The translations under genes were made by a program, and so were the position numbers. From positions 1,046,092 through 1,110,091 of the forward strand of contig OZ245897.1 in NCBI GenBank assembly GCA_965229675.1: 64,000 bases of DNA, given 5' to 3'. The stretch is from Alphaproteobacteria bacterium (GTDB lineage Bacteria; Pseudomonadota; Alphaproteobacteria; CBDDJK01). The notes under the pieces were generated by a model. The model made no database searches and had not been told where the DNA came from. It saw only the letters and a list, made by a program, of their open reading frames with translations. Below, in pieces: positions 15,362-51,976 of the stretch (its first letter is position 1; every line of letters starts with the position of its first letter).

Positions 15362-15510
15362 TATAACCTCCTAAATGGTAAATGTAGAATAAATAATTTT
15401 CCGCAATTACATTACTAAGAGGAAACCAGTTTGACAACATTAAAATATCCCTTTGAAATAAGGGGGGGATAAATTAAATGATGATCTAACCATTTGATTA
15501 AGAGGGGTTC

Positions 15511-20376: not shown

Positions 20377-20832
20377 ATGATAACCCGCATTGGGGCTGAG
20401 ATTGCAACATTAGGGGTTGGTAAAAGCCCGATCGCCCCAGGCACAATGGGAAGCCTGCTTGGGTTTGTTCTTGCATTCTTATTGATGCCAAATTTATCCT
20501 TAATCCTAAACTGGGGGATAATTATTGGTGCGGCACTGATTGGCTGGTGGGCTGCCGATTGCTATCAAACTTATCATAAAAAGATTGATGCGCCCGAAGT
20601 GGTGATTGATGAATTATCTGGGTTGTGGCTTTGCTATGGTTTAATTGAATTAACCCCGATAATGATGATCGCTGGACTTATTTTGTTTCGGTTTTTTGAT
20701 ATTATTAAGCCTTGGCCGATTGGCTGGATTGATAAGCGATTGAAAAATCCGTTTGGCACGATGTTGGATGATTGGTTAGCAGGGCTTGCTTCTGCTGGTA
20801 CGCTTTTGCTTATTGAATTTTTATGGCTTTAA
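20377..20832 (+). CDS. pgpA: Phosphatidylglycerophosphatase A
   Basis: 151-aa membrane protein with the PgpA N-terminal motif GVGKSPIAPGTMGSL. Confidence 0.7.
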   Translation: MITRIGAEIATLGVGKSPIAPGTMGSLLGFVLAFLLMPNLSLILNWGIIIGAALIGWWAADCYQTYHKKIDAPEVVIDELSGLWLCYGLIELTPIMMIAGLILFRFFDIIKPWPIGWIDKRLKNPFGTMLDDWLAGLASAGTLLLIEFLWL

Positions 20833-21590
20833 TCGTCGATAATCTTGTTGGAAGCTATCAAAGCGAAGATGGTTCGCTTAAACCCGCAATAGGCTCTTTA
20901 TCATTTACGCACCAAGCGGGTAGCTTTTTAACCATTGTTGGCCCTTCTGGTTGTGGAAAATCAACGCTTTTAAATCTAATTGGTGGCTTTATAAAAGCAG
21001 AATGCGGTAGCATCCATTTTAATAACAAACAGGTTATAGCCCCCTATTCTGGTTGTGGTATTGTTTTTCAACAGGGAGATTTATTTGATTGGCTTACCTT
21101 ACGCCAGAATATTGAATTTGGATTAAGAATGGGTGGCAAATCACGCGCTGAATATCGAAAATGTTCTGATGAATGGCTTGCTAAAATTGGGCTTCAACAT
21201 GCTGCCGATCAATTACCCCCAACCTTATCGGGGGGAATGGCGCAGCGTACTGCATTGGCACGGGCATTAGCAAATGATCCGGAAATTTTATTGCTGGACG
21301 AACCATTGGGGGCATTGGATGCTTTGACACGTGAATCCATGCAACAATTATTGCTTAGTTTATGGTTGGATAGCCGCAAAACAATGGTGATGGTCACCCA
21401 TAATATTGAGGAGGCTATTTTGCTTGGTCAAAGGGTATTAATCCTCTCCCCCTCTCCTGGTATTATCATTGGTGATCTTGAAATCCCATTTTCAGATGCA
21501 GAACGCGCTAATCCCACTATCCTTTATGCCAATCCTGATTTTATCGCCTTACGGCAGAAAATTTATGGTTTATTACATAGCAATTCATAA
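20823..21590 (+). CDS. ABC transporter ATP-binding protein (NitT/TauT-like family), orphan
   Basis: Walker A GPSGCGKST, signature LSGGMAQRTALARAL, Walker B LLLDEP. No adjacent permease. Confidence 0.8.
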   Translation: MALIVDNLVGSYQSEDGSLKPAIGSLSFTHQAGSFLTIVGPSGCGKSTLLNLIGGFIKAECGSIHFNNKQVIAPYSGCGIVFQQGDLFDWLTLRQNIEFGLRMGGKSRAEYRKCSDEWLAKIGLQHAADQLPPTLSGGMAQRTALARALANDPEILLLDEPLGALDALTRESMQQLLLSLWLDSRKTMVMVTHNIEEAILLGQRVLILSPSPGIIIGDLEIPFSDAERANPTILYANPDFIALRQKIYGLLHSNS

Positions 21591-36104: not shown

Positions 36105-37109
36105 TTAATTTATCATTAGTGATAGACCAATTGGACAATGATCGGACAATCTTGATAAAATATTAGGGTCAAGATCAGTAAAATATTCTTTAAAAGACCC
36201 CAGTTCTACCAAGGCGGCAGCTGGTTCATTCATGACAAAATGATCGATGAAATAAGCATATTTGCTATCATGGCACAGCGATTTCATAAAACGATTAGGG
36301 CGCACCAACCCAGCAAGATAGCCTTTGGCCTCATGATCAAACAGGCTAGGCCACATCCAATTGGTAGGTGTTTTTTCTAGTGAATGGGATAAATCAGGGG
36401 CGGGTTCAATATCAAAGCGTCGATTAAAATCTCCAACGATTACAAATGGTTTACCCTTATGAATGCGTTGATGCATCCATTGTTTTAACCCTTTTATTTG
36501 TGCCTTTAATGTAGCGCAATTTTTGTTATTGGCACGCGATAATGGTATTTGGTGGCAATTTGATTTTAAATGCACGCCCAACAGATCAACTTCAAATTGA
36601 TTAAGGCTTAATGATAAAGATAACCCGCCACGCAAATAACCATTAATATTTAAACTTGGCAAAGGCTTAATTTGGCTGATTGGTACCAACCAAGCTTTGC
36701 GTAAAATTGCCTGTTTCATATTACGACCATCCGCAGAAATATGAATATCATATTGATTTGCAAAAATTCTTTTTAAAGCTTCAACAGAGCTAACTTCTTG
36801 AATAAATAGTAAATCTCCTTCCAATTTAGCCGCATAGTCTGCAAGCAGGTTTAAATCTTCATTTGTCCGCCTGCCAGCAGTAACCGTACCATCCTCATTT
36901 TGTTTTGGTGTAGAGAGATGTTGCAAATTCCAACTAATAATCTTTAAAACAGGCGGTATCTTATTGATTTTATTATGATTATCAAAAGGATCATCTGAAT
37001 TTGGATAGGGTGTAGCGAATCCATCCCATCTAATCGCCAAGCCTACCCCCAGCAAGATCAAAATGAATATTCCAATAAAAATAATGAATTTTCTATTATC
37101 AAACACCAT
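36105..37109 (-). CDS. Endonuclease/exonuclease/phosphatase (EEP)-family protein with an N-terminal membrane anchor
   Basis: N-terminal TM FIIFIGIFILILLGVGLAI. The EEP-like features are SWNLQHL near the N-terminus and SDHCP near the C-terminus. Confidence 0.55.
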   Translation of the reverse strand: MVFDNRKFIIFIGIFILILLGVGLAIRWDGFATPYPNSDDPFDNHNKINKIPPVLKIISWNLQHLSTPKQNEDGTVTAGRRTNEDLNLLADYAAKLEGDLLFIQEVSSVEALKRIFANQYDIHISADGRNMKQAILRKAWLVPISQIKPLPSLNINGYLRGGLSLSLSLNQFEVDLLGVHLKSNCHQIPLSRANNKNCATLKAQIKGLKQWMHQRIHKGKPFVIVGDFNRRFDIEPAPDLSHSLEKTPTNWMWPSLFDHEAKGYLAGLVRPNRFMKSLCHDSKYAYFIDHFVMNEPAAALVELGSFKEYFTDLDPNILSRLSDHCPIGLSLMIN

Positions 37110-38248: not shown

Positions 38249-39133
38249 ATGATAAAGAAAGTTGATAATTTCCCACTTGGTGTCGTATTTATCGTGATAA
38301 CAATGATTTGCTTCACGATCCTTGATTCCATTGCAAAATATCTGATCATTCATGGCATTCCTGCTTATCAAGTCGCGTTTACCCGCTATGCTGTTCATAC
38401 AATCCTTGCAACTGCTGTGCTTTATCCAATTATGAAAGGCAAGTTGTTTGAAAATCAATCAGGCCCGCTTGTTTATATACGTGGTATTTTATTAGCCGCG
38501 ATGACAGGGCTTAACTTTTGGGCATTACAATATATTTCAATTGCAACAACAGCTGCAATCTTAACCATGATCCCTATTACAATCTGTTTATTATCCATTA
38601 TAGTTTTAAAAGAAAAAGTTGGAATACATCGTTGGCTTTCGATTTTAATGGGTTTTGTTGGCGTAATCATCATCATTCGTCCCTTTGGGGTTAGTTTTCA
38701 TTGGGCGATGCTTTTGATGCTTGGAATGGTCTTATGTGCAGGATTATTTACCATTATTACCCGCAAAATAGCTGGCGTTGACTCACCTTATAGCCTACAA
38801 TTTTATAGCGGCATTTTTGGTATTTTATTCCTTTTGCCTTTTCAATTCCAAGGTTGGGTTCTTCCATTTGATTGGTTTTTGCTATTTCTTCTGTTTGCAA
38901 CTGGTTTAATGGGATGGTTAGGGCATCAATTTTTGATTCTTGCCCATCATTATGCCGAAGCTTCCAGCCTTGCACCCGTTGGCTATATTCAATTTTTATT
39001 TATGGGGCTTTCAAGCTGGTTGATTTTCAATGATGTACCTGATTTACCTGTTTTTATTGGTGGGGGAATTGTGTTGATCAGCGGCTTATATATCCTTCAC
39101 CGCGAGCGTAAAGCTAGAACATTTTCGTTTTAA
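38249..39133 (+). CDS. DMT-superfamily (EamA-like) transporter
   Basis: 294 aa with 10 predicted TM segments and two EamA-like halves. Confidence 0.65.
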   Translation: MIKKVDNFPLGVVFIVITMICFTILDSIAKYLIIHGIPAYQVAFTRYAVHTILATAVLYPIMKGKLFENQSGPLVYIRGILLAAMTGLNFWALQYISIATTAAILTMIPITICLLSIIVLKEKVGIHRWLSILMGFVGVIIIIRPFGVSFHWAMLLMLGMVLCAGLFTIITRKIAGVDSPYSLQFYSGIFGILFLLPFQFQGWVLPFDWFLLFLLFATGLMGWLGHQFLILAHHYAEASSLAPVGYIQFLFMGLSSWLIFNDVPDLPVFIGGGIVLISGLYILHRERKARTFSF

Positions 39134-39160: not shown

Positions 39161-39967
39161 TTATTTTTTATAATGAAAGTGATCTCTTAATCCTTCAGCG
39201 ACTAAATTAACTGCGATAATGAAGGAAAAAATCACGCCGCCTGAAAATAGCATTAAATGCGGAGCAGTATAAAGATAGGTTTGTGAATTAGCAAGCAATC
39301 GGCCAAGGCTGGGTTCAGGCGGTGCTAATCCGAACCCTAAATAGCTTAGGCCGCTTTCTATTAATAAAGCAATGCCACATTGTATTGCGCCTTGAATGAT
39401 TAAGATGGGTTTAATATTGGGTAGAATATGCAAAAAAATAATTCCTGCCTGAGACCGACCTCCCATCAATGCAGCACGCACATAATCTTTATGAAGGATA
39501 TCGCGAGCCGCTACCCTTGTCATGCGCATAAAGACAGGAAGATTAAATAAAGCAATTGCAATCATCACATTAAATCCATCCGCCCCACGAATGGCTGTTA
39601 ATAAAATTGCCGTCAATAAAGCTGGAAAGGCAAAAATAAGATCACTGGTAGAACCGATCATACGATCAAGCCAGATTTGTTGAGTGGGCTGGCTATGAAG
39701 CGCACTGATTAATCCCAATATAATTCCAGCGATGCTACCAATTAAAACTGCGGGGAGGCTGATGCTAAGGCTGTTAAAGCTACCAACCATAATCATACTT
39801 AACAAATCACGGCCATAAGCATCTGTGCCTAGCCAATATTTGCCAAATGGAGGGGATAAACGATCTTGAATATGCATCATATCGGCGGCATAAGGTGTCC
39901 AGAATAGGGATAGTAAAGCTAAGCTGGTAAGCACAAAGAGGATTATGGCACCTAAACTTAGTTTCAT
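39161..39967 (-). CDS. ABC transporter permease, DppC/OppC-type
   Basis: N-terminus YWLGTDAYGRDLLS and the binding-protein-dependent transport (EAA) loop. 268 aa. Confidence 0.8.
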   Translation of the reverse strand: MKLSLGAIILFVLTSLALLSLFWTPYAADMMHIQDRLSPPFGKYWLGTDAYGRDLLSMIMVGSFNSLSISLPAVLIGSIAGIILGLISALHSQPTQQIWLDRMIGSTSDLIFAFPALLTAILLTAIRGADGFNVMIAIALFNLPVFMRMTRVAARDILHKDYVRAALMGGRSQAGIIFLHILPNIKPILIIQGAIQCGIALLIESGLSYLGFGLAPPEPSLGRLLANSQTYLYTAPHLMLFSGGVIFSFIIAVNLVAEGLRDHFHYKK

Positions 39968-40914
39968 TATCCTAACCTTGGGTCAAGCATAGAAGCCAAC
40001 CTATTTAATCCAAAATTAACCAGCATGATGGTGATAACCATCAATAAAACAACCGCACGAACCGTGATTAAATCGCGTTGTAACACCGCTTGGAATAATA
40101 AGCGTCCTAGCCCTGGTAAAGAAAATAAGGTTTCAACAAGAATGGTTCCCGATAATAAAAACGAAAATTGTAAGCCAACCAAGGTTGCCATGATGATTAA
40201 CGCATTGGGAAAAGCGTGCCGCCAAAGACAAACACGCCACGAACATCCCTTGGCACGTGCGGTTCTTAGAAAATCTTGATTTAAAACATCAATCATTGTG
40301 CTTCTGGTAATGCGCGCTAGTATAGCTATTTGTGGAACGGCCAGTGCGAATGCAGGTAAGGTTAAACGATACATCCCATCTGCCATTGATGAAATAATAG
40401 ATTGATCTTTACTAAACCAGCTTTGAAAGCCACCCGCAGGAAACCAGCCCAGAGTCACACTAAACAAAAAAATAAGCAACAACCCTAACCAGAAATTTGG
40501 AATTGCAATACCAATTCTTGTAAATAAGGCAATGAGTTTATCCAGCCTTTGATGATAATGAAACGCTGAATAAATTCCAAGCGGAATGGCTAACAATAGA
40601 GTTAAGCCCATACAATAAAAAATTAATGGTAGGGATAGAAATAACCGTTCAAGGATTAAATCGGATACGGGGACATTATAGGTAAAACTTAGCCCAAAAT
40701 CGCCTTGAACCATTCCCCATAACCACAGCCCATAACGCACCCATAAAGGTTGATCAAGGTTAAGTTCCGTCCTTAATGCTTGTAGGGTATCTTCGCGCGC
40801 TTCCAGCCCTAACATTAGGCTTGCGGGGTCTCCAGGTAGGCCTTCTATAATCAAAAAAACAATAAGGCTTGCAAACAGACTACCGAAAATTAGTCTAAGG
40901 AATATAGGAAACAC
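39967..40914 (-). CDS. ABC transporter permease, DppB/OppB-type
   Basis: EGLPGDP near the N-terminus, the FLRTARAKG EAA-loop, and 6 TM helices. 315 aa. The stop/start overlaps the DppC-like gene. Confidence 0.8.
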   Translation of the reverse strand: MFPIFLRLIFGSLFASLIVFLIIEGLPGDPASLMLGLEAREDTLQALRTELNLDQPLWVRYGLWLWGMVQGDFGLSFTYNVPVSDLILERLFLSLPLIFYCMGLTLLLAIPLGIYSAFHYHQRLDKLIALFTRIGIAIPNFWLGLLLIFLFSVTLGWFPAGGFQSWFSKDQSIISSMADGMYRLTLPAFALAVPQIAILARITRSTMIDVLNQDFLRTARAKGCSWRVCLWRHAFPNALIIMATLVGLQFSFLLSGTILVETLFSLPGLGRLLFQAVLQRDLITVRAVVLLMVITIMLVNFGLNRLASMLDPRLG

Positions 40915-40920
40915 AGCCGT

Positions 40921-43900
40921 TTAAAGTACACGTTCACGATAGGTTTTCATAAAATCTTCAAAGGAAGAACGTGCGGTAAGCTTTTGGACATAATCTTCAA
41001 TCTCAGCCTTTTGTTGCAAATCACGTGGCGCAAAATCTCTGCTGGTTAGATAATCGAAAACATCAGCTATTTCTGTACGACTCATCGAAGGGCCATAGAC
41101 TTCTCTTAGATAATCAAGCCCACGCCGATCATTATCTAATTTAAGTGCAACCGCCCAATCCACAACATATTGCGCCCGCTCTTCAGGTAGCGATTGCCGC
41201 GCCCGTTGTGGTGGTTTTCCAGCTAAGCGTTGAAGATTTTTTGCAACTTCTCCCCATTGTCGATTCTTCCAGTAAATATCACGGCGGAGTAAATTCGCTT
41301 CATCGCTAATATCTCCTGCTAATAACTTTAATGCTTCTTCAGGACGATTAAGTTCAAACTGTGCTTGTGCGCGCAATCTACGCCGATCATCATAAAGCGC
41401 ACCTTGAGAGGTAATATCTTCGGTTTTATCCAAAGCTTCCAATGTTTTATCGGGCTTACTTTCAAGCAACCGAACAAGTGCTAATTTTGTGCCTGTTTCA
41501 ATGCGCTCTTCCCCTTCAAGGCGATGGTCAATTTGATAATCCAACAATGTGGCGGCATGATCCAACAAATCGACCTGAATAAGTCGTTGTGACAGGTAAT
41601 TGATCATCTGATCCCCTTCTTCATCAGGCGGTGTTAGCTCCCGATAAGCATCAAAAAATGCAAGGGCTTGAGCGGCAGGCATTTCATTTGCTTTACGGTT
41701 CAAAAATAAATCCCGAAAGGTCGATTGCATACGATTACCAATAACTTCAACCATCGGATTATCTGGAAAATAGCTTAACGCTGTCTTATAAACATCAAAT
41801 CCTTCAAAATATAGGCCATTATTAATGTACAGCTTTCCTAATTGATCAAGCACGGCCAATTCAAATTCATTACCGCGCCATTGATAGCGTAACTGTTCAA
41901 GAATTTCTAAGGCTTCTTGGTTAGAGATTGTCTCTTGCCTTAAATTTAACCCCACATAAGCAAATGCAGCACGTGCTGCATTTTTACGATCATTGCCTGC
42001 CATTAATTCCTGCCAATATTGATTGGCAAGGGCATAATCAGAACGTGACGCAACCATTCGCCCTTTATTATATTGTAAATCGCCAAGCACGCCACGTGGC
42101 AATAGGTCTTTTTCACGATCCAATTGGTCGATGATTGCCGTTGCCATTCGAACATCGCGATTTTCCATGGCAGCTTCAATCGCCATGATCCCCAATTTTC
42201 CTTTTAAGGGTTGTGGATAATTTCGTAACTGATTGACTGCAAGGCGAAAATATTCCAATGCCCTTGCGCTATTGCCACGTTCGGCAAGTAACGCAGCATT
42301 CCATAAAATTCCTTCGCGATATTGTCCAACTTCACGGTCACCTAAATCTTGTTCAGCTTCATCAAGCCGTCCTGCCATGAAATTTGCAACACCACGCAAG
42401 GCGCGTACAGGTACAGATTCAATCAATTTTGGGTGATCTCGTTCTATTAAATCTAAAACCCCTAAGGCTTCTTGTCCCAAATCATGTGCTACATAAAACC
42501 GTGCCAAATAAAGCCGTGCGCGGGCAATATCTGCTTTAGACATTTCTGTTATATTGTTTAATAAGCGTTGCTTGTTTGTATAAAAATCTTCCGCAGGCCC
42601 AAGCGCCCATTCTTTGAAATCAAACAGATTTGCAGTTTTAAAACTGATATTAGATTCAGTGGCATTTTCAGGTGAAACGCCAGATAGCTGTAAACCGTTG
42701 GGGGCAGAAATGCGAAAGCCATCTTCGGCCTTTGTGAAAACCATACGATCCGTTAAAGTTTCAATGGCCAAACCTTGCGCAGAAGGTAAAAGATTAAATT
42801 CAGGATAGCGTCGTAGCCCATTAACGCCAAGCCCTGCTTCGCGGAATGTAATAATATTAAGTTCATCGCCTGTAACTGGATCAATAACAGAAATATGCTC
42901 TCCTGGTTCTTGGCTAGCTAAAAACATATGGCTACCAAGGTCTGCATTAACGCTAATATCAATCGGCAATTGGCTTGCGGGCATAATGGGCCCAAGGCGT
43001 AAATCAACCTGCCATAGGCCGCCCTCTCTTTTTAATGATGGGTTGATCCTTGTATCGGGAACATGCAAACGAAAAAGGGTTTTTTGTTCAATCGGCATTT
43101 GTTCAATATCGATAATCACATCTTGATTAATACCGCCTAAGGGTTCCATATCCATGGGTGTTGAATCGTCAAATACCAGCCATATATATTCACCGCGACG
43201 AAAAACGGCACCGCCCACTGTTGTTGGCCAATCAAAGCGCATATTCACCAAGGTAGGGCCAATAACATTTTCTGGTTTATCTGTTTCGCTTTCTTCGTTT
43301 GACAGGAGATTAGCGTCTTTCCCTTCGGCAGCAACTAAAATTTCGCGTGCTTGATCTTTGGTCATGAATTTTGTGTCTAATGTCCCAGCTAAAACAGCGC
43401 GTGCCGCTTCAATTTCAGTTTGACTATATTGCCGTGTTCCTCTTTTTGTTTTTCTTGCCAAGGAAATTTCGGGGGGCAGTAAACGAATAATAATTCGTGC
43501 GCTTTGTGATTTTGTTTCTATTTCATGATGGCGTGTCATATTGAATAGAATAGAGGTTTTAGAACTCTCCGATGTGATAACAGGCGCACGTAACCAATCA
43601 GGCAATTTTTGTTTAAGTTCTTCACGGTCAATTTCTGCACCAGCTGAGAAGGATAAATCTAAATTACCTTGACGATTAACCGCATCAAAACTGACTCGTA
43701 CTGGCCAATCAAAGATAAGATCGGTTACCCCATCTTGATCTTGATCAACCATAACATCAACTTGATAGAATACATTTCCTTCTTGATCACGCTTCGTGCG
43801 TTTTAAACGATCAAGCGGCGATATAACGGGGGCTGCTTGTTCGGCAATCGGTATTCTGGAAGGTTCAATACGGTTGCTTTGTGCTTGTTGATTGTTTTCT

Positions 43901-44457
43901 ACTGGTTCAAATCCAGGGGATGAAGGCCGCAACGAATTTGTTTGTTCAATAAATTCTTCTTCTAATTCAAAAGATTGTGGTTCAGAATTTACGGATTGAA
44001 ACCCGTCATCCTCTTCATTTACATTCTCTGATGTTGTCCCCCCGCCATCTGTTGCCAAATTAGAATTAGACGCTTCATCAGCCGCATATAATTCCAAGAT
44101 GACGCGATTGGAACGATTGAATGCCAATATTTCTACATTACGCTTAAGAATAATGACAACATTTTTACCATCTTCTGTGATCCGTCCCCCTGAAATATAG
44201 CTTGGTGCTAATCGACCAATCGGGGCAATATTAGCAATTAACGGTTCAGAAAATTTAACCGTTATTTTTTGCCCACTTAATTGCGCTTCATAATTTACTT
44301 GTTTTGGCCAATCAAACGAAACTTGTGCTTTTGCAGGCTGTTCCCACGCACGAACAAGTACGGGCGTTTGCGCATTCGCAACCGAGGAAAATAATAAAAT
44401 AAATAATAGCCCTGCTAGAAAAGCTACAAACCGTATGTTATGTTGATTAATCATCAT
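40921..44457 (-). CDS. Large (1178 aa) secreted protein with an acidic low-complexity region and a C-terminal TPR-like helical repeat region; function unknown
   Basis: Signal peptide FVAFLAGLLFILLFSSVANA. An E/D/S/N-rich linker follows. The C-terminal ~500 aa are rich in helical repeat-like segments (ARLYLARFYVAHDLGQEALGVL...). Confidence 0.45.
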   Translation of the reverse strand: MMINQHNIRFVAFLAGLLFILLFSSVANAQTPVLVRAWEQPAKAQVSFDWPKQVNYEAQLSGQKITVKFSEPLIANIAPIGRLAPSYISGGRITEDGKNVVIILKRNVEILAFNRSNRVILELYAADEASNSNLATDGGGTTSENVNEEDDGFQSVNSEPQSFELEEEFIEQTNSLRPSSPGFEPVENNQQAQSNRIEPSRIPIAEQAAPVISPLDRLKRTKRDQEGNVFYQVDVMVDQDQDGVTDLIFDWPVRVSFDAVNRQGNLDLSFSAGAEIDREELKQKLPDWLRAPVITSESSKTSILFNMTRHHEIETKSQSARIIIRLLPPEISLARKTKRGTRQYSQTEIEAARAVLAGTLDTKFMTKDQAREILVAAEGKDANLLSNEESETDKPENVIGPTLVNMRFDWPTTVGGAVFRRGEYIWLVFDDSTPMDMEPLGGINQDVIIDIEQMPIEQKTLFRLHVPDTRINPSLKREGGLWQVDLRLGPIMPASQLPIDISVNADLGSHMFLASQEPGEHISVIDPVTGDELNIITFREAGLGVNGLRRYPEFNLLPSAQGLAIETLTDRMVFTKAEDGFRISAPNGLQLSGVSPENATESNISFKTANLFDFKEWALGPAEDFYTNKQRLLNNITEMSKADIARARLYLARFYVAHDLGQEALGVLDLIERDHPKLIESVPVRALRGVANFMAGRLDEAEQDLGDREVGQYREGILWNAALLAERGNSARALEYFRLAVNQLRNYPQPLKGKLGIMAIEAAMENRDVRMATAIIDQLDREKDLLPRGVLGDLQYNKGRMVASRSDYALANQYWQELMAGNDRKNAARAAFAYVGLNLRQETISNQEALEILEQLRYQWRGNEFELAVLDQLGKLYINNGLYFEGFDVYKTALSYFPDNPMVEVIGNRMQSTFRDLFLNRKANEMPAAQALAFFDAYRELTPPDEEGDQMINYLSQRLIQVDLLDHAATLLDYQIDHRLEGEERIETGTKLALVRLLESKPDKTLEALDKTEDITSQGALYDDRRRLRAQAQFELNRPEEALKLLAGDISDEANLLRRDIYWKNRQWGEVAKNLQRLAGKPPQRARQSLPEERAQYVVDWAVALKLDNDRRGLDYLREVYGPSMSRTEIADVFDYLTSRDFAPRDLQQKAEIEDYVQKLTARSSFEDFMKTYRERVL

Positions 44458-44466
44458 TGCCCTAAC

Positions 44467-45333
44467 TTATTGACCACGCAAAATTTGACCGATTAAAATC
44501 GTTACCTGATTCCCATCAGGTTCGGTATTTTCTTTAGCCACTGTTGTTTCAGACATTTGTTCCTTAGATGGAGACGAAATATCACCCGCAACGATGATTG
44601 GTAACCCTAAATATCCACCTGCAATGAATAAGCGCGCCATTTTACGCCCGCGTGCTAAGGACATACGAAGGGATTCTTGAATAAGTTCACTGCGTTCGAC
44701 CTCATTATTTGGTAAATTATCTAATCCTTCAAGGGCGACTTTGATTTCAATTTGATTAGGCAATTCATTCAAAGTTAAAGCAAGTGTCCTTAACATTTCT
44801 TGCGTTTGTTCGGGAGCTTTTAAATTAACAGTTTTTTGAGTAAATTGCACATCAGAACTTAAATATAGCATAAGGCGATTCTGATTTTGGCCAAATTTAA
44901 CTTGAGAGAGAAGCTCCAACCCTTCAAATGTTTTCGGCAATGTTTTCGCCATATAATCTAAATTTTGTCCATAGCCGATGCGAAAGCTATCTATTCCAAG
45001 GGCGGCGGTTCGCTGTTCCACCCTTTGCGGGCTAAAACTACTATTGAAGGTTTGAACCAGCTCATCCCATTTTCCTTCCTTGATTGAAGACATTGAAAAC
45101 ATCATCACAAAAAAGGTTAGCATTAACGCAGTTAAATCACTAAAACTGATTAACCACATCCGCCTTGCAACAAAGCTTCTTTGCTGCGTTTTTTTGATTA
45201 AATGCGTTGTATGATGGCTTTCTTCATACTCTTCAAACGGTTGCGCTTGATCTGGAAGTCCAAATGGATTGCCTGCTTCTGCCTTTGGGGCATTCAAGAT
45301 ATTTTCTGTTGAGGAATTATTATTGGACGACAT
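44467..45333 (-). CDS. MotB/OmpA-like membrane-anchored protein (degenerate peptidoglycan-binding C-terminus)
   Basis: A single TM WLISFSDLTALMLTFFVMMF resembles the MotB plug/TM region (W..YADLMT.L..FF). The C-terminal LSLARGRKMARLFIAGG resembles the tail of an OmpA_C domain. Confidence 0.45.
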   Translation of the reverse strand: MSSNNNSSTENILNAPKAEAGNPFGLPDQAQPFEEYEESHHTTHLIKKTQQRSFVARRMWLISFSDLTALMLTFFVMMFSMSSIKEGKWDELVQTFNSSFSPQRVEQRTAALGIDSFRIGYGQNLDYMAKTLPKTFEGLELLSQVKFGQNQNRLMLYLSSDVQFTQKTVNLKAPEQTQEMLRTLALTLNELPNQIEIKVALEGLDNLPNNEVERSELIQESLRMSLARGRKMARLFIAGGYLGLPIIVAGDISSPSKEQMSETTVAKENTEPDGNQVTILIGQILRGQ

Positions 45334-45338
45334 CGTGA

Positions 45339-46283
45339 TTATCCTATTGTGCGCAACGTAAATTGAACAGAATTAAACGCCTGTACTGATTCTTGTGGTG
45401 CGGCCTGCGGTGTTTCTGATTCTGGAGTGTCAGTAGCAGGTTGTGGCACATCTTCATTATCCGTTGACGGATCAGTTTCTTCAGAAGGTTCTGGTAGGAA
45501 TTCTAAGCGAAAATAAAATCTGGTTCCTTCTGGTAGCGTGGGTTCACTTTCACGAATATTAAAACTTAACCTTTCAGGGTTAAACCCTGCTTCTTCAAAA
45601 ACAGAGGTCAGGGTGATAATACGCTCGATTGCAATTCTGGACGCTTCAGGCATTTGTCCTATGCCTTCTGGAATTGATAATTTTAAATCACCTGGCAATA
45701 ACTCCCAAGCACGTTTATTTTCAAGGATAGAATCGGTTGTCTCTTGTGTGGTTTCAACCTCTTCAGATTTCTCAGTTAAATAATCATCAACAAAAAAGAT
45801 AACATCCAAATAAAAAAGCTGGTTTCCAGGAAAATTTTCCATCACTTCAACGGTTGAAGCTAATAATTTTTCACGATCATCATGAAGGATAGCCTGCCCC
45901 CTAACAAATAGTGCGTCATAAGGCACATCCAGCATCATATGTTCTCCACGCGAAAAGATAGATATATCAGCTAATGGAATAAGCGTAGCCCATAATTTAT
46001 GGCTGGTTGAAATAATGCTGGAAGCATCAGGAAATGGACCAAAATTTGATAAGGCAAGATCATCTTCATCTGGTGCAACCACAACCACTTTATCTTCTGC
46101 AACAAAATGCCCTGTCACTTCCTCAAGCCGTGCCGCATCGATATCCGATAAGGCATTAAGTAGAATAAAAAAGGCCAATAATAATAAGAATAAAGATAAA
46201 AATAGCAAAATCTGCCCACCAACGCCAGCATCTGGTGCTTGGCGAAGCCATCGACTTTTTTTTATGATATAAGTCCCTTCCAT
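45339..46283 (-). CDS. Hypothetical bitopic membrane protein with a Pro/Glu/Thr-rich C-terminal tail
   Basis: A single TM ILLFLSLFLLLLAFFILLNAL and a C-terminal low-complexity segment PEPSEETDPSTDNEDVPQPATDTPESETPQAAPQ. Confidence 0.4.
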   Translation of the reverse strand: MEGTYIIKKSRWLRQAPDAGVGGQILLFLSLFLLLLAFFILLNALSDIDAARLEEVTGHFVAEDKVVVVAPDEDDLALSNFGPFPDASSIISTSHKLWATLIPLADISIFSRGEHMMLDVPYDALFVRGQAILHDDREKLLASTVEVMENFPGNQLFYLDVIFFVDDYLTEKSEEVETTQETTDSILENKRAWELLPGDLKLSIPEGIGQMPEASRIAIERIITLTSVFEEAGFNPERLSFNIRESEPTLPEGTRFYFRLEFLPEPSEETDPSTDNEDVPQPATDTPESETPQAAPQESVQAFNSVQFTLRTIG

Positions 46284-46429
46284 ACCCTAAAAATCTCTTT
46301 TGAAAAGCTAACTTTTGCACAAGGATCTACTATTAACATTGCCTGATTTGCCTTATGATTGCAAGTCTATTGAAAACAGTCAAAAAACTAGATAAAACCA
46401 CCATAATCAAAAGAAATTATAGGATATTG

Positions 46430-48274
46430 ATGAGAACAAAAGATCGAAAACGCTTTTCAATGCTTAGCCGCCGTTCCGCCTTGCTATTAGGAGGGCAAGC
46501 GGCACTTGTTGGGATTATGGGGGCGCGTCTGTTTCAATTGCAAGTGGTTGAGCATGACCGTTACCAAGATCAAGCAACGAAGAATAGTTTGAGCTATCGT
46601 ATGCTTACGCCAACACGGGGGCTTATTCGTGACCGCTATAATAGGATTTTGGTTGATAATACCAAACGTTTTACCCTTAAAATTACCCCTGACCAAACAA
46701 AAGACCGCGATCTGCGGGAGGTATTGGAACAAGTCGCACAAATTATTCCGCTGAATAAGAAATCAATTGATCAATTGATTGCTAGGCGTGCAAAGCAGTT
46801 TGGATTTGTGCCTTTGATTATTCGTGAACATTTAAGTTGGAAAGAATTAGCAAAAATTAGCGTTGAAATTCATAAACTTCCTGGCATCGAAATTGTTGAT
46901 GGGTCAAGGCGCACTTACCCGCATCATTTTTATACAGCACCTGTAACAGGTTATGTTGGGCGTGTTAGCCCTGAAGAAATGAAAGCGGATCAACCCTTAC
47001 TTAACATGCCTGATTTTAGGATTGGCAAACAAGCGATTGAACATGTTTATGACAATAAGTTGCGTGGCACTGAAGGGTATCAAAAACAGCTTGTTAATGC
47101 GCATGGACGGCGAATTGCAATTAAAGAAACGGATTCTCCTAAACAAGGGCAGGATTTAAAACTCACCTTGGATATTGACCTGCAAAAATATGCTTATGAT
47201 GCCTTGATAAAACACCAAGCAGGTGCTGCTGTGTTGTTGGAGGTTGATAGCGGTGCGGTACGCGTACTCGCCTCCTGCCCATCTTACAATCCTAATCAAT
47301 TTGTGGATGGCATTGCGCCAAGCCTTTGGAAGGCTTATTTGAACGATCCTTATTATCCGCTGGTAAATAAAGCCGTTACGGGGCTTTACGCACCAGGCTC
47401 AACCTTTAAACTGATAACCTTATTGGCCGCTTTGAAAACTGGCATTTCCCCTAATTTTAATGTCCCATGCTTTGGGGATATTGAATATGGTGGTCATCAA
47501 TTTCATTGTTGGAAAGAACGCGGTCATGGACAGATGAACGCAATAAGTGCAATGAGGGAGTCTTGTGATGTATGGTTTTATGAAGTTGCCAAAAAAGTTG
47601 GAATCCAAGCCATCGCAGATATGGCACGTGATTTAGGGTTAGGTGCGCTAACAGGTATTGATCTTGAAGGGGAACGGGCAGGGCTTATCCCTGACCCTGA
47701 TTGGAAACGAAAAGCGCGAAATGCTTCTTGGTATGGCGGGGAAACCTTGATCAACGCCATTGGTCAAGGTTTTGTCCTTGCAACCCCCCTTCAGCTTGCA
47801 ACCATGATGGCAAGATTGGCGAAAGGTGGAAGGAATGTTACGCCTTATCTTAATGAGGCTTTGAAAGCTAAGCGTTTATCACAACAAGCGGCGGATTCTA
47901 CGCCCCTTATTCCAAGCGCACATTTAACCACCCTTAATCTTGCGTTAAGTGAAGTGGTCAATCATTCGCGTGGTACTGCCTATCAAAGCCTTTATGATAA
48001 ACAAGCACCAATGATTATGGGAAAAACAGGCACAAGTCAGGTTCGTCGCATTACCATGAAAGAGCGTGAAGAAGGTGTATTGAAGAATGAAAATATAGCA
48101 TGGCGGTTGCGTGATCATGCGTTGTTTGTTGGTTTAGCACCCGTGAAACAACCGCGTTATGCCGTTGCAGTTGTCGTTGAGCATGGAAAAAGTGGGTCTT
48201 CCACCGCAGCACCAATTGCTGGGATGCTTTTAAGAAACGCACTTGAAAAAGATCAAGCGCATCAAAATGTATAG
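46430..48274 (+). CDS. mrdA: Penicillin-binding protein 2 (peptidoglycan D,D-transpeptidase)
   Basis: N-terminal TM, then the transpeptidase motifs STFK (APGSTFKLIT), SxN and KTG (GKTGTSQV). The start may lie at 46355, 46430 or 46460. Confidence 0.85.
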   Translation: MRTKDRKRFSMLSRRSALLLGGQAALVGIMGARLFQLQVVEHDRYQDQATKNSLSYRMLTPTRGLIRDRYNRILVDNTKRFTLKITPDQTKDRDLREVLEQVAQIIPLNKKSIDQLIARRAKQFGFVPLIIREHLSWKELAKISVEIHKLPGIEIVDGSRRTYPHHFYTAPVTGYVGRVSPEEMKADQPLLNMPDFRIGKQAIEHVYDNKLRGTEGYQKQLVNAHGRRIAIKETDSPKQGQDLKLTLDIDLQKYAYDALIKHQAGAAVLLEVDSGAVRVLASCPSYNPNQFVDGIAPSLWKAYLNDPYYPLVNKAVTGLYAPGSTFKLITLLAALKTGISPNFNVPCFGDIEYGGHQFHCWKERGHGQMNAISAMRESCDVWFYEVAKKVGIQAIADMARDLGLGALTGIDLEGERAGLIPDPDWKRKARNASWYGGETLINAIGQGFVLATPLQLATMMARLAKGGRNVTPYLNEALKAKRLSQQAADSTPLIPSAHLTTLNLALSEVVNHSRGTAYQSLYDKQAPMIMGKTGTSQVRRITMKEREEGVLKNENIAWRLRDHALFVGLAPVKQPRYAVAVVVEHGKSGSSTAAPIAGMLLRNALEKDQAHQNV

Positions 48275-48285
48275 ACAATAAAATT

Positions 48286-49434
48286 ATGATTAAATCCGAA
48301 GAAATTTTATTGCCGCCTTTGTTTCAAGGCAGCTTTTTAACAAAATTAATAAGGCTTAATCCTGTAATCCTATTGCTGCTAATAATATGGGCTGGTGTAG
48401 GGATTATCATGCTTTTTTCAGCCGCAGGTGGTTCATTTGACCCTTGGGCAAAACGCCAAACAATCTATCTTGTGATTGGTTTTTGTATGATGTTATTTCT
48501 TGCCTTAACCAATCCTGATTTTTGGCTCTATTGGGCTTATGGCATTTATGGGCTTGCTTTACTATTATTAGGTGCTGTTGAATTGGTTGGAACAACGGGA
48601 ATGGGAGCTAAGCGGTGGCTTGATTTAGGAATCCTCCGCATCCAACCTTCAGAACTTATGAAACCTGCTTTAATCCTTGCACTTGCGGGGTATTTTCACA
48701 AACTTTCGCTTGAGGATACCCATAAACTTCGCCATTTATTAATTCCGATAGTTTTGATTGTGATCCCCGTTATGATGGTAATCCGCCAACCCGATCTTGG
48801 AACGGCAATTGTCTTAATGCTGGGCGGGGTGATGGTGTTATTCTTAGCTGGCGTAAAGCTATGGAAATTTTATGTAATGGCAGTGGGGGTGCTTTTGTCG
48901 CTTCCAATCGCATGGAATTTTATTTTACATGATTATCAAAAACGGCGTATTTTAATCTTTCTTGAGCCAGAACAAGACCCGCTGGGCGCGGGCTATCATA
49001 TTACCCAATCAAAGATTGCTTTGGGTTCTGGAGGGGTTACTGGGCGGGGTTATATGGAAGGCACCCAAAGTCAATATAATTTTTTACCTGAAAAACATAC
49101 AGATTTTATTTTCACGATGTTAGGGGAAGAATTTGGCCTGCGTGGAACCTTTGGGCTTTTATTCATATTTTGTTTGCTTGTTGGTACGGGGACATGGTTA
49201 GCATTACGCGCGCAAAGTCAATTTAATCGGCTTTTAGCCTTTGGATTAATCAATAATTTTGCGCTTTATGTGATGATTAATATTGCAATGGTTACTGGCA
49301 TGGCACCCGTTGTTGGCTTACCGCTTCCAATGATTTCTTATGGCGGTTCTGCGATTATCAGCGTGTTATTAGGGTTTGGGTTGATCTTAATGGTTGGCAT
49401 CAATCGTGACCATCTAACCGATTTACGATCTTAG
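48286..49434 (+). CDS. rodA: SEDS-family peptidoglycan glycosyltransferase RodA
   Basis: About 10 TM helices, and the conserved SEDS segments (PSELMKPALILALA..., GYMEGTQSQYNFLPEKHTDFIF). It lies immediately downstream of mrdA. Confidence 0.85.
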   Translation: MIKSEEILLPPLFQGSFLTKLIRLNPVILLLLIIWAGVGIIMLFSAAGGSFDPWAKRQTIYLVIGFCMMLFLALTNPDFWLYWAYGIYGLALLLLGAVELVGTTGMGAKRWLDLGILRIQPSELMKPALILALAGYFHKLSLEDTHKLRHLLIPIVLIVIPVMMVIRQPDLGTAIVLMLGGVMVLFLAGVKLWKFYVMAVGVLLSLPIAWNFILHDYQKRRILIFLEPEQDPLGAGYHITQSKIALGSGGVTGRGYMEGTQSQYNFLPEKHTDFIFTMLGEEFGLRGTFGLLFIFCLLVGTGTWLALRAQSQFNRLLAFGLINNFALYVMINIAMVTGMAPVVGLPLPMISYGGSAIISVLLGFGLILMVGINRDHLTDLRS

Positions 49435-49536
49435 ATTAAGCTTTAAAAAATAATGGATTTGACATTATTTAGGTTTGGTTTTAACTTAAAGCCATGCAAT
49501 AAAGCTAATTAAATTTAGTTATTATGGAGGTTGGGA

Positions 49537-50547
49537 GTGGCAACAAAAAAAGCAGACAACAAAGCAAATAAGCAGTTGAAATCAAATTCGAATCCTCAAG
49601 AATTATTGGAGGATTATCGTGCGATGTTGCTAATCCGCCGCTTTGAAGAAAAAGCGGGGCAACTTTACGGCATGGGGTTAATTGGCGGCTTTTGCCATCT
49701 TTATATTGGGCAAGAGGCGGTGGTGACTGGAATGCAAGCCTACACAGAAGAAGGGGATACGGTGGTCACCAGCTATCGTGATCATGGGCATATGTTGGCT
49801 TGTGGCATGGATGCAAATGGCGTGATGGCGGAGCTTTTAGGACGATCAGATGGCTATTCTGCGGGTAAAGGCGGCTCCATGCATATGTTTTCGCGTGAAA
49901 AAGGTTTTTTTGGTGGTCATGGAATTGTTGGGGCGCAGGTTCCGCTTGGCGCAGGCACAGGCTTTGCACTGAAATATCAGGGATTAGATCGGGTGGCAGT
50001 GACCTATCTTGGTGATGGTGCAATTAACCAAGGACAGGTATATGAAACCTTTAATATGGCCGCCTTATGGAAATTACCCGTGATTTTTGTTATTGAGAAT
50101 AATCAATATGGCATGGGAACTTCGGTCACGCGTTCTTCGGCTAGTGGGACGAATTTACATGACCGTGGTATTGCCTATGGCATTCCCGGTAAAGAAGTTG
50201 ATGGTATGGATGTTGAAAAAGTACGGGAAGCTGCAAAAGTAGCCTTTGAACATTGCCGCGCTGGTAAAGGACCAATTATATTGGAGATGAAAACCTATCG
50301 CTATCGCGGGCATTCGATGTCTGATCCTGCAAAATATCGTCCCAAAGAGGAAGTTGATTATATGAAACAAACTTCTGATCCAATTGAACGGGTTAAAGCA
50401 AAAATTTTGGAAAATGGTTATGCCGATGAAGCCGCCTTAAAGGACATTGATCGCGAAGTTAAAAAAATCGTTTCTGAGTCGGCTGATTTTGCCCAAGCAA
50501 GTCCAGAACCTGATCTTTCTGAACTTTATACAGATGTGATCGTGTAA
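49537..50547 (+). CDS. pdhA: Pyruvate dehydrogenase E1 component alpha subunit
   Basis: ThDP-binding motif [23 protein letters not shown]. The GTG at 49537 sits 6 nt after a GGAGG RBS (the tabulated ORF begins at TTG 49531). Confidence 0.85.
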
Positions 50548-50563
50548 GGGAGGGGGGGAAGAT

Positions 50564-51976
50564 ATGACAATCAAACTTTTAATGCCAGCCTTATCGCCAA
50601 CTATGACGGAAGGAACGCTTGCAAATTGGCTTGTGAAAGAAGGCGATTCCATCGAATCAGGACAGGTCATTGCTGAAATTGAAACCGATAAAGCGACCAT
50701 GGAAATTGAAACGGTCGATGAAGGAATCATTGGAAAAATCCTTATTGAAGCTGGAACAGAAAATGTTGCAGTGAATGAAGTGATTGCTTTGTTGCTGGAG
50801 GAAGGGGAGGATGCAACCGCCCTTGATAGCACCCTTGACACCGTGATGGTGCAATCTCCACAGCAATCTTCACAACAGGCAGAACCCAATAAAGAAGAAA
50901 ACACGCCAACACAGATTGCACCAACACAGATTGCAACAGAACCAAAAGCGGTTGAAGCTGAAACGCTTATTGAACCAGAATGGGACGGAGCTGTCACGAG
51001 CTTAACAGTGCGCGAAGCCCTACGCGATGCAATGGCAGAAGAAATGCGGCAAGATGAAGCCGTCTTTGTAATGGGGGAAGAGGTTGCAGAATATCAAGGT
51101 GCTTATAAAGTAACCCAAGGATTATTGGATGAATTTGGCGATAAGCGGGTGATTGATACCCCGATTACTGAACATGGATTCGCAGGTATTGGGGTTGGTG
51201 CTGCTTTTATGGGGTTAAAGCCAATCGTTGAATTTATGACCTTTAATTTCGCGATGCAAGCGATTGATCATATCATTAATTCTGCGGCAAAAACTTTATA
51301 TATGAGTGGTGGGCAGTTGGGTACGCCGATTGTTTTTCGTGGCCCTAATGGTGCGGCTTCACGTGTGGCGGCACAGCATTCACAATGCTATGCAAGCTGG
51401 TATGCGCATTGCCCTGGGCTTAAAGTTGTTTCGCCTTATTCAGCTGCTGATGCTAAAGGCCTACTTAAATCGGCAATTCGCGACCCTAATCCCGTGATTT
51501 TTCTTGAAAATGAATTATTATATGGACAAAGTTTTGATGTGCCTGATAGCGAAGATTGGACGGTTCCAATCGGCAAAGCAAAAATTGTTAGATCAGGAAG
51601 TGATGTTACAATCACCGCCTTTTCGATTATGGTGGGGCATGCGCTGGAAGCCGCCGAACAGTTAGCAGAACAAGGAGTATCTGCGGAGGTCATAGATTTA
51701 CGCACCTTGCGTCCATTGGATGAACAAACTATCATTGCATCGGTTAAAAAAACCAATCGCCTTGTTAGCTGTGAAGAAGGTTGGCCTTTTGCGGGTATTG
51801 GTTCAGAATTAGCAGCCTTGATGATGGAACAATGTTTTGATCATTTGGATGCGCCTGTGATCCGCGTGACTGGTAAGGATGTGCCTTTGCCCTATGCTGC
51901 TAATTTAGAAAAGCTAGCCCTGCCAAAGGCGGAAGATATTGTTAAAGCCGCTTTTCAGGTCTGTTACAAGGATTAG
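50564..51976 (+). CDS. pdhB: Pyruvate dehydrogenase E1 component beta subunit with an N-terminal lipoyl domain
   Basis: N-terminal lipoyl domain ([10 protein letters not shown]), then a Pro/Gln-rich linker, then the transketolase-like E1-beta core. This alphaproteobacterial PdhB architecture gives 470 aa. Confidence 0.9.

Follow-up and report, generated by a model that had tools for sequence, protein, structure and literature searches.

Periplasmic scaffold proteins built from tetratricopeptide repeats (TPRs) have been described in several flagellar motors, and we compare with them a run of five genes (g1, g2, g3, dppB and dppC) on contig OZ245897.1 of the NCBI GenBank assembly GCA_965229675.1, from an alphaproteobacterium of the GTDB lineage CBDDJK01. 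The window, by which we mean the whole 64,000-nucleotide stretch that was analysed, covers positions 1,046,092 to 1,110,091 of the contig, and the five genes occupy its positions 39161-46283. In Caulobacter crescentus, deletion of the gene for FssB (CC_2058, CCNA_02137), a TPR protein with a Sec signal, leaves the filament present and the motor paralysed, from which the authors concluded that the stators depend on this protein for their proper activity; in the same bacterium, motA and motB occupy separate loci (PMC7885107). In the Fla2 system of Cereibacter sphaeroides, MotK (RSWS8N_12065) resides in the periplasm and combines an N-terminal AMIN domain with TPRs. Rotation requires it but assembly does not; MotB2 and MotE are its binding partners, and MotA2/MotB2 are needed for its placement at the pole (PMC10954123; PMC13023049). 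MotE of the same system is also required for rotation and binds MotB2 (PMC10954123). MotC of Sinorhizobium meliloti, which is periplasmic and contains TPRs, acts on MotB, receives stability from MotE and has been grouped with MotK and PflA (PMC13023049). PflA itself has 16 TPRs, an unstructured linker and an N-terminal beta-sandwich, and was modelled without its signal peptide (PMC12222027).

FlgY, MotE, FlbB and CC_2059 have been equated with one another as the E-ring, and PflA, MotC, MotK, FlcB and CC_2058 as the TPR spokes that link this ring to the stators (PMC13023049; bioRxiv 10.1101/2025.02.19.638559). The CC_2058 gene lies directly downstream of the gene for the MotE/FlgY homolog CC_2059 (PMC13023049), and CC_2058 has been proposed as a distant counterpart of MotK on account of its AMIN-like N-terminus and gene position (PMC10954123). 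According to the same authors, MotK lacks BLAST similarity even to CC_2058 (PMC10954123), and the common ancestry of these scaffold proteins therefore rests on structure and context.

Set against these systems, the cluster is quite likely a relocated flagellar stator-scaffold module, g1-g2-g3, with a neighbouring permease pair, and not a new transporter. The two units are co-oriented and probably co-transcribed, and dppB and dppC are most likely mere neighbours of the triplet. In transcription order, the five genes are as follows.

45339-46283, minus strand: g1, 314 amino acids, bitopic inner-membrane protein, first gene
44467-45333, minus strand: g2, 288 amino acids, MotB-family protein
40921-44457, minus strand: g3, 1178 amino acids, putative periplasmic AMIN/TPR protein
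39967-40914, minus strand: dppB, 315 amino acids, GTG start, DppB/NikB/GsiC-type ABC permease
39161-39967, minus strand: dppC, 268 amino acids, DppC/NikC-type ABC permease

From g1 to dppC, the gaps between the open reading frames (ORFs) measure 5, 9 and 6 nt, and the dppB stop and dppC start overlap by 1 nt. This agrees exactly with the initial annotation, which had described five minus-strand genes in this order and at these coordinates, linked by gaps of 10 bp or less or by overlap. Its account of the products was also borne out by the results given below: a bitopic protein with a Pro/Glu-rich tail, a MotB-like protein with a degenerate OmpA-type end, a putatively secreted protein with an acidic linker and C-terminal TPRs, and DppB- and DppC-type permeases after which no genes for a substrate-binding protein (SBP) or an ATPase follow.

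The setting of the triplet in other genomes indicates what it is. A GTDB scan with one genome per species retained 80 loci, from Marivibrio, Aestuariispira, Pacificispira, Hwanghaeella, Magnetovibrio, Pelagibius, Kiloniellaceae, Stellaceae, Kordiimonas, Sphingomonadales metagenome-assembled genomes (MAGs) and others, and synteny was read from them by tblastn. Among the 61 species loci with enough upstream flank (at least 6.5 kb), 59 have both fliM and a homolog of motE on the upstream side and in the same orientation, the exceptions being L007 and L008, and fliM stands upstream on the same strand in 16 of the 17 Joint Genome Institute (JGI) metagenome loci with enough flank. The canonical operon order is fliL-fliM-DUF6468-motE-(cheY-like or cheZ-like)-g1-g2-g3, with g3 last; the gene between DUF6468 and g1 matches MgtE_N and the spirochaete collar protein FlbB, and was therefore identified as MotE/FlgY. 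Of the loci with at least 1 kb of flank, 69 of 74 have g2 upstream of g3 and 59 of 71 have g1 there. A g3 homolog is also terminal in the fliL-fliM-DUF6468 operon of Kordiimonas aquimaris, Roseibium hamelinense and an ENA assembly, with flgF-flgG-flgA-flgH divergent, and on an Erythrobacter aureus plasmid (RefSeq, L090) a homolog labelled 'hypothetical protein' follows fliL, fliM and a 'DUF6468 domain-containing protein' in a named flagellar cluster. Both g1 and g2 are missing from this plasmid and from the Roseibium locus (L002), and in both places motE and g3 are adjacent.

The motE-g3 order of Roseibium mirrors that of CC_2059 and CC_2058, and FssB, a Sec-signal protein, shares with g3 an AMIN-like N-terminus and TPRs; the N-terminus of g3 looks like a signal peptide as well. 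The two were compared by position and architecture, and the g3 of the window differs in lying outside a flagellar cluster and in being followed by dppBC. As a separate observation on these operons, the gene that separates motE from g1 is CheZ-like in Kordiimonas (L001, 7932-8582) and encodes a single-domain CheY-like receiver in the Rhodospirillales-type loci L013 (7718-8104) and L006 (7933-8322).

Only in one small clade does the triplet stand outside the fliLM-motE operon. This clade comprises the window, the strain L091 (about 97% identical to it), one MAG that appears as L004 and as L008, and the next closest relatives, L003 and L007. Adjacency to motE and a flagellar cluster is a trait of the family that all of these copies lack. 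In L003/L007 (g3 of L003 is 44% identical to that of the window), the relocated triplet is followed by a holA-like gene and not by dppBC. L003 and L091 both come from one ENA metagenome assembly, ERZ25074195, so the two lineages co-occur.

The permease genes stand behind g3 in three places only: the window, L091 and the MAG, whose g3, DppB and DppC are 54%, 46% and 45% identical to those of the window. Counted over the loci whose downstream flank was long enough, dppBC follow g3 in 1 of 72 from GTDB and in 0 of 30 from metagenomes. The single GTDB case is L008, itself one of the two loci without fliM, and none of the 59 flagellar-operon loci has the permeases. The initial annotation had seen in the five genes an undescribed transporter that couples membrane anchors and a TPR protein to permeases. 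Conserved co-occurrence, which it had named as a check, was found in part: the five-gene set does recur in L091 and in the MAG, but elsewhere the triplet stands without dppBC and in flagellar operons, and the transporter itself is not upheld, the triplet being a flagellar-operon module in 59 of 61 GTDB loci. Matches resembling dppB/dppC occur at one other locus only, L014 (17758-19669), some 5 kb downstream of g3; they are encoded on the other strand, score lower and probably represent a coincidental, ordinary dpp operon.

The family to which g3 belongs is large. An exhaustive HMMER search, counted in cluster representatives, gave 3838 members at E<=1e-3 and 1938 at E<=1e-30, mostly of 1000-1300 amino acids and with a conserved core at about residues 400-1178. 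For g3 itself, Pfam returned nothing but faint TPR matches; among 40 aligned family members, the AMIN-like family PF24837 matched 20 and AMIN (PF11741) matched 6. The family profile (positions 164-347) also aligned with the AMIN region of PilQ (4av2_A residues 33-200, E 2.8e-5; 9sh1_A, E 7.9e-5). An AlphaFold2 (AF2) model built from 40 homologs, with a mean predicted local distance difference test score (pLDDT) of 82.8, gives the following layout, in which the signal peptide was read by eye.

44371-44457, minus strand: residues 1-29, putative Sec-type signal peptide, MMINQHNIRFVAFLAGLLFILLFSSVANA|QTP, hydrophobic, ending ANA|Q
44083-44367, minus strand: residues 31-125, first AMIN-like beta-sandwich, eight strands, pLDDT 92-95
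43777-44079, minus strand: residues 127-227, disordered acidic linker, pLDDT 29-48
43477-43770, minus strand: residues 230-327, second AMIN-like beta-sandwich, pLDDT 87-95
42688-43260, minus strand: residues 400-590, beta-rich domain(s) at the start of the core, with invariant D526 and G562
40924-42618, minus strand: residues 614-1178, TPR-type alpha-solenoid of about 36 helices

In the model, an N-terminal helix spans residues 6-26 and a few helices are predicted between the second sandwich and residue 400. The 101-residue linker holds 21 Asp/Glu against 8 Lys/Arg, and the invariant residues of the solenoid are W860, R861, E866, P943 and R1025. The model thus shows the architecture of the scaffold class, a beta-sandwich, a flexible linker and a long TPR superhelix. 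Foldseek against 350,542 PDB chains placed first 9hmf_K, which has 773 residues and belongs to the flagellar periplasmic scaffold of Campylobacter jejuni (E 2.4e-9 over 859 aligned columns), with about 10% identity and TM-scores of only 0.18 and 0.25; the remaining strong fold matches are generic TPR superhelices. From its length, which fits PflA residues 16-788, we infer that chain 9hmf_K is PflA. A PDB sequence search with the g3 family profile gave no match to PflA.

Family gene position, architecture and this best fold match together suggest that g3 fits the PflA/MotK/FssB class. PflA of C. jejuni and Helicobacter pylori shares with it the beta-sandwich, the linker and the long TPR superhelix, and its spokes run from the E-ring, formed by the MotE homolog FlgY, to the stator ring. 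The beta-sandwich of PflA, however, binds PflB, whereas the AMIN-like domains modelled in g3 suggest peptidoglycan binding, and no PflB-like rim protein was found next to g3. MotK follows the same AMIN plus TPR domain logic, and g3 likewise adjoins a MotB-family gene. The gene for g3 is the longer, with 3,537 bp against a motK PCR product of 2,163 bp that includes 100 bp on each side, and the g3 model shows a pair of AMIN-like domains, together with a long acidic linker and one additional beta domain. MotC, which enters this comparison through its published description, differs from the g3 class in having no AMIN domain (PMC13023049).

The g3 of the window retains all seven family-invariant residues. 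Of 107 positions with a conservation of 85% or more across 128 other members, it keeps 89; the median of those members is 101 and their minimum 84. By this measure, it is somewhat diverged yet inside the family range. A cryptic family-5 SBP, a possibility that the initial annotation had proposed to check by structure prediction, was considered and rejected: SBP_bac_5 gave no match at E<=0.1 in g3 or at E<=0.01 in 40 members, and the AF2 fold consists of beta-sandwiches and a TPR solenoid, not of a bilobed binding fold, with PDB matches to TPR scaffolds. The scenario by which that annotation would have been overturned, a recognisable SBP in this position, did not materialise.

The other two members of the triplet form a MotB-like pair. 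The g2 product matches Pfam MotB_plug (4.8e-14) and resembles MotB in having a cytoplasmic N-terminus, one transmembrane (TM) helix with Asp66 in 'SFSDLTALMLTFF', a plug helix and an OmpA-like periplasmic domain. The channel (proton-binding) Asp is retained in all 72 orthologs that cover the region. The orthologs match Pfam OmpA, whereas no OmpA match was obtained for the window g2 at E<=0.1 (Pfam); the peptidoglycan-binding motif 'GHTDP...SNWELSLARA' of the orthologs reads 'LDNLPNNEV...ESLRMSLARG' in the window copy (residues ~195-235). The TM helix with its invariant Asp and the plug helix of MotB are therefore present in it, and an OmpA-like domain with the binding motif is not. Degenerate or lost motifs also occur in some Kiloniellaceae/Pelagibius-type loci still inside flagellar operons; the loci noted for this outside the relocated clade are L056, L059, L067, L071, L076 and L083. 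In L008, a Gly/Ala/Val-rich insert occupies the site of the motif. Orthologs of g2 align at full length to the NCBIfam MotB, MotD and MotS models, with scores of 57.6 bits for the window copy, 76-116 for five of the six orthologs scanned and 58.8 for that of L003. The cut-offs are 250-312, and no ortholog scanned attains a curated MotB, MotD or MotS cut-off, so that g2 and its orthologs form a distinct MotB subfamily. A single-sequence AF2 model of g2 reached a pLDDT of 35.6.

The g1 product matched MotB_plug at 3.4e-5, just under the gathering score, and hhalign of the g1 family against the g2 family gave a probability of 98.4% (E 9.8e-15) across 190 columns, the OmpA-like part among them. 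Judged by its sequence, g1 is a full-length MotB/g2 paralog without the channel Asp, and in this it departs from MotB altogether: the position is Ser30 in the window and Ser, Ala or Gly in all 64 members of the g1 family. Its Pro/Glu-rich C-terminal tail has 64 residues, with 9 Pro and 13 Asp/Glu. Most fliLM operons of Rhodospirillales, Kordiimonas and related groups carry such a pair of paralogs, placed after motE and before the PflA-like gene, and we found no description of a g1/g2-type pair in the literature searched. With an Escherichia coli MotA sequence as the query, no MotA-like gene was found in the window or, for any of 91 loci, at a distance of up to 10 kb.

The permeases are a different kind of unit. 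Both dppB (BPD_transp_1 7.9e-38, plus BPD_transp_1_N) and dppC (BPD_transp_1 5.1e-20) encode full-length BPD_transp_1 permeases of the Dpp/Opp/Nik type in Pfam, and since they fall below every NCBIfam equivalog cut-off their substrate cannot be named. The EAA coupling loops ('QDFLRTARAKGCS...' and 'KDYVRAALMGGRS...') are visible in the DppB and DppC sequences. The pair resembles PepT-family importers in having two permeases with such loops, although L224 and P241, both conserved positions, are no longer present in the window copy. The nearest DppB homologs among the matches listed, at 52-56% identity, lie in canonical operons of SBP_bac_5, B, C and either a pair of ATPases or a single fused one, and carry the SBP gene directly upstream. 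In contrast, neither an SBP gene nor an oligo_HPY ATPase gene was found at our locus or among the ORFs scanned in the 64-kb window, and dppDF-type ATPases are also absent at the L004/L008 and L091 loci. DppB of the window retains 118 of 146 conserved positions and that of L008 retains 101, outside the range of the 119 canonical homologs listed, whose minimum is 129.

Independent acquisition of dppBC by the window and L008 lineages was considered as well and is unsupported, the two DppB being sisters in a neighbour-joining (NJ) tree. In L091, an IS630-type transposase helix-turn-helix fragment (15305-15703) comes right after dppC and is followed by polyprenyl synthase, ilvC and metK. As this fragment and unrelated genes stand in place of the EamA-type gene and fzlA of the window, dppC ends at a breakpoint of rearrangement, and this may account for the absence of dppDF.

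The ratio of nonsynonymous to synonymous substitution rates (dN/dS) and the synonymous rate (dS) were computed between the window and the strain L091. The dN/dS values are 0.08 for g1, 0.09 for g2, 0.045 for g3, 0.14 for dppB and 0.09 for dppC, with 0.015-0.17 in housekeeping neighbours. All five genes are under purifying selection, and with the conserved positions retained in g3 this shows that they are maintained. Recurring as it does in L091 and in the MAG, their arrangement is no chance juxtaposition of ORFs. We also observed that dS across the five genes (39161-46283) is 0.06-0.16, compared with 0.28-0.34 in mrdA, rodA, pdhA and pdhB (46355-51976); this two- to threefold lower dS across the module hints at recent recombination or a sweep.

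The surroundings of the cluster are those of a housekeeping region. Its immediate neighbours are listed here.

38249-39133, strand opposite to dppC: EamA-type gene, next gene downstream
46284-46354, intergenic: 71 bp between the divergent g1 and mrdA, presumed to hold the module promoter
46355-48274, divergent from g1: mrdA, upstream neighbour
48286-49434, divergent from g1: rodA, upstream neighbour

On the downstream side, the EamA-type gene and fzlA are convergent with the cluster. A scan for sigma-70 and terminator patterns showed no excess over shuffled sequence, a hand search upstream of g1 in the window gave no clear CtrA box, sigma-54 or sigma-28 motif, and the regions upstream of g1 in the window, L003, L007 and L008 had no promoter motif in common. 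An Rfam scan of the 71 bp matched no family. The remaining genes of the window are housekeeping genes (trp, accD, dapE, fumA, rpoD, pdh, topA, pyrB and glycosyltransferases), together with trkA, fzlA and a pyruvate dehydrogenase (PDH) E1-beta gene with a lipoyl domain. FzlA and this form of E1-beta are marks of an alphaproteobacterium. No family-5 SBP or DppD/F-type ATPase was found among the ORFs scanned in the 64 kb; the sole ABC ATPase seen (20823-21590, 255 amino acids) has an ABC_tran match only, without oligo_HPY. An ORF of 334 amino acids between trkA and fzlA (36105-37109, minus strand) had no NCBIfam match at E<=1e-5 or at E<=1e-8.

The position directly beside mrdA and rodA had been taken in the initial annotation as a hint at an envelope or cell-wall function. 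A synteny check, however, found homologs of mrdA, rodA, fzlA, EamA, trkA and pdhA in no other g3 locus, and mrdA-rodA lie next to the module in the window and L091 only; since the other loci are without these neighbours, the hint is unsupported. The genome is small, with a contig of 2.47 Mb, and its G+C (GC) content is about 42%. TopA (54400-57015) is at most 65% identical to any sequence outside its own strain cluster and at most 60% to named genera (Aestuariispira, Marivibrio, Pelagibius), and the lineage is therefore poorly sampled. One of the closest TopA matches is an entry in a eukaryote protein set (eukprot g943.t1). Taken together, the TopA distance, this match, the 2.47-Mb contig and the GC content suggest a possibly host- or protist-associated lineage.

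Under the reading of a relocated stator-scaffold module, the triplet (Unit A, 40921-46283) would be the distal, stator-scaffold end of a fliL-fliM-DUF6468-motE operon that moved to a housekeeping region. It would have left the operon in the common ancestor of the clade of window/L091, L008 and L003/L007, and in one branch it would have landed directly before dppBC, the remnant of an ordinary peptide/nickel-type importer. The g3 protein, presumably exported to the periplasm, would grip peptidoglycan with its AMIN-like sandwiches, while its TPR superhelix would form radial spokes around the MS-ring and E-ring (MotE/FlgY) that position or activate stator units. By analogy with PflA, MotK and FssB, such an anchored spoke would contact MotE and a MotB-type subunit and would act in rotation, not in assembly. 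We would place g2 in a MotA pentamer encoded elsewhere, and g1 may be an accessory or non-conducting partner. The permeases (Unit B, 39161-40914), a pair derived from the PepT family, would work with partners encoded elsewhere and have no mechanistic tie to Unit A; this provision in trans, like spoke formation by g3 and its contact with the stator, is drawn from analogy with the described systems. Since g1 to g3 are under purifying selection, the organism is also assumed to possess a flagellum, motA and motE.

Several findings weigh against this reading. No flagellar genes, motA or motE were found in the 64-kb window, and the link of g3 to CC_2058, MotK and PflA rests on position, architecture and one fold match with a low TM-score. 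In g2, the motif for peptidoglycan binding is gone from the window and L008 copies and weakened in L003/L007, and g3 lies at the low end of family conservation in those lineages where the triplet left the flagellar operon. On the side of the permeases, L004/L008 keeps the same five-gene order, with a 17-nt overlap at the g3-dppB junction. The DppB of L008 (L004 13350-14324) and that of the window are sisters on long branches of the NJ tree, and share 16 losses of conserved positions, including L224 in the ATPase-coupling EAA loop and P241. The branches of both orphan DppB are long, and long-branch attraction is therefore possible. The motif loss in g2, the conserved g3-dppB junction and the diverged DppB pair leave some room for a changed function.

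One alternative is that the triplet is a flagellar relic, repurposed after loss of the flagellum and independent of dppBC, for example to anchor or energise another envelope machine through a MotA/ExbB/TolQ-type partner. Reduced, host-associated lineages often lose motility, and a small genome with a GC content of about 42%, far from named genera and with one relative from a eukaryote data set, would fit this idea, as would the absence of flagellar genes from the 64 kb, the loss of the peptidoglycan-binding motif from g2 and the departure of the module from the fliLM-motE operon in one small clade only. Yet purifying selection on g1 to g3 is strong (dN/dS 0.045-0.09), and the MotB Asp and plug are kept along with the 89 conserved positions of g3, which argues for ancestral interactions. 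Degenerate g2 motifs, moreover, are also found in the Kiloniellaceae-type loci that remain in flagellar operons, and mot genes apart from the main flagellar clusters are common in alphaproteobacteria, as in Caulobacter (motA and motB, PMC7885107). We consider a repurposed relic unlikely.

A second alternative takes the five genes as one new envelope system, in which MotB-like modules, proton-driven or anchored to peptidoglycan, and g3 work with DppBC; g3 might replace the SBP, or the system might link transport of peptides or muropeptides to the cell wall. The junctions are tight (6 nt in the window, the overlap in L004/L008), the order is kept at 54% g3 and 46% DppB identity and recurs in L091, and g3 occupies the slot that an SBP gene holds in canonical operons. 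Both orphan DppB fall outside the range of the 119 homologs and share their losses, yet remain under purifying selection, and the binding motif of g2 has decayed in these same lineages. Against this, the triplet is found without dppBC in 71 of 72 GTDB species and in 30 of 30 metagenome loci, almost always in a flagellar operon, and where it has been relocated in L003/L007 a holA-like gene follows. No SBP_bac_5 similarity was seen in the sequence or fold of g3, whose family-invariant residues are kept, and the adjacency to mrdA-rodA is not conserved. The coupling loops of DppB and DppC are recognisably intact, and therefore ordinary ATPase partners encoded elsewhere suffice. Such a joint system is very unlikely, and we regard as similarly improbable its most specific form, in which the detached MotB-like pair, g3 and DppBC make up a peptidoglycan-anchored, possibly proton motive force-driven machine that replaces the SBP for peptide or muropeptide uptake. 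Because the junction is conserved despite divergence, the DppB pair has diverged and the g2 motif is lost, a coupling between dppBC and the triplet keeps this small probability.

Finally, that g3 is a family-5 SBP with an N-terminal extension in an ordinary split dpp operon is favoured by its position alone, directly upstream of dppB where dppA normally sits, and is negligibly probable, given that it has no SBP_bac_5 match, that its confident AF2 model is not bilobed and finds TPR scaffolds in the PDB, and that its homologs occur at full length in flagellar operons without permeases.

The preferred reading of a relocated stator-scaffold module next to a permease pair means that g1 to g3 fall under a recently recognised and thinly characterised set of motor accessories, the MotE/FlgY E-ring and the PflA/MotK/FssB spokes. 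This is of use for annotation, as the RefSeq labels seen for g3 members are 'hypothetical protein' or 'tetratricopeptide repeat protein'. The adjacency of dppBC matters only if the low-probability coupling is true, in which case parts of a flagellar stator scaffold would have been co-opted for transport. Of most interest as a by-product are the paired MotB paralogs of alphaproteobacterial fliLM operons, which are widespread and apparently undescribed and of which just one has the channel Asp. They raise the questions of whether g2 is a working stator subunit, whether g1 and g2 form mixed B-subunit dimers or non-conducting stators, and why the motif for binding peptidoglycan should decay in the presence of a scaffold that bears AMIN domains.

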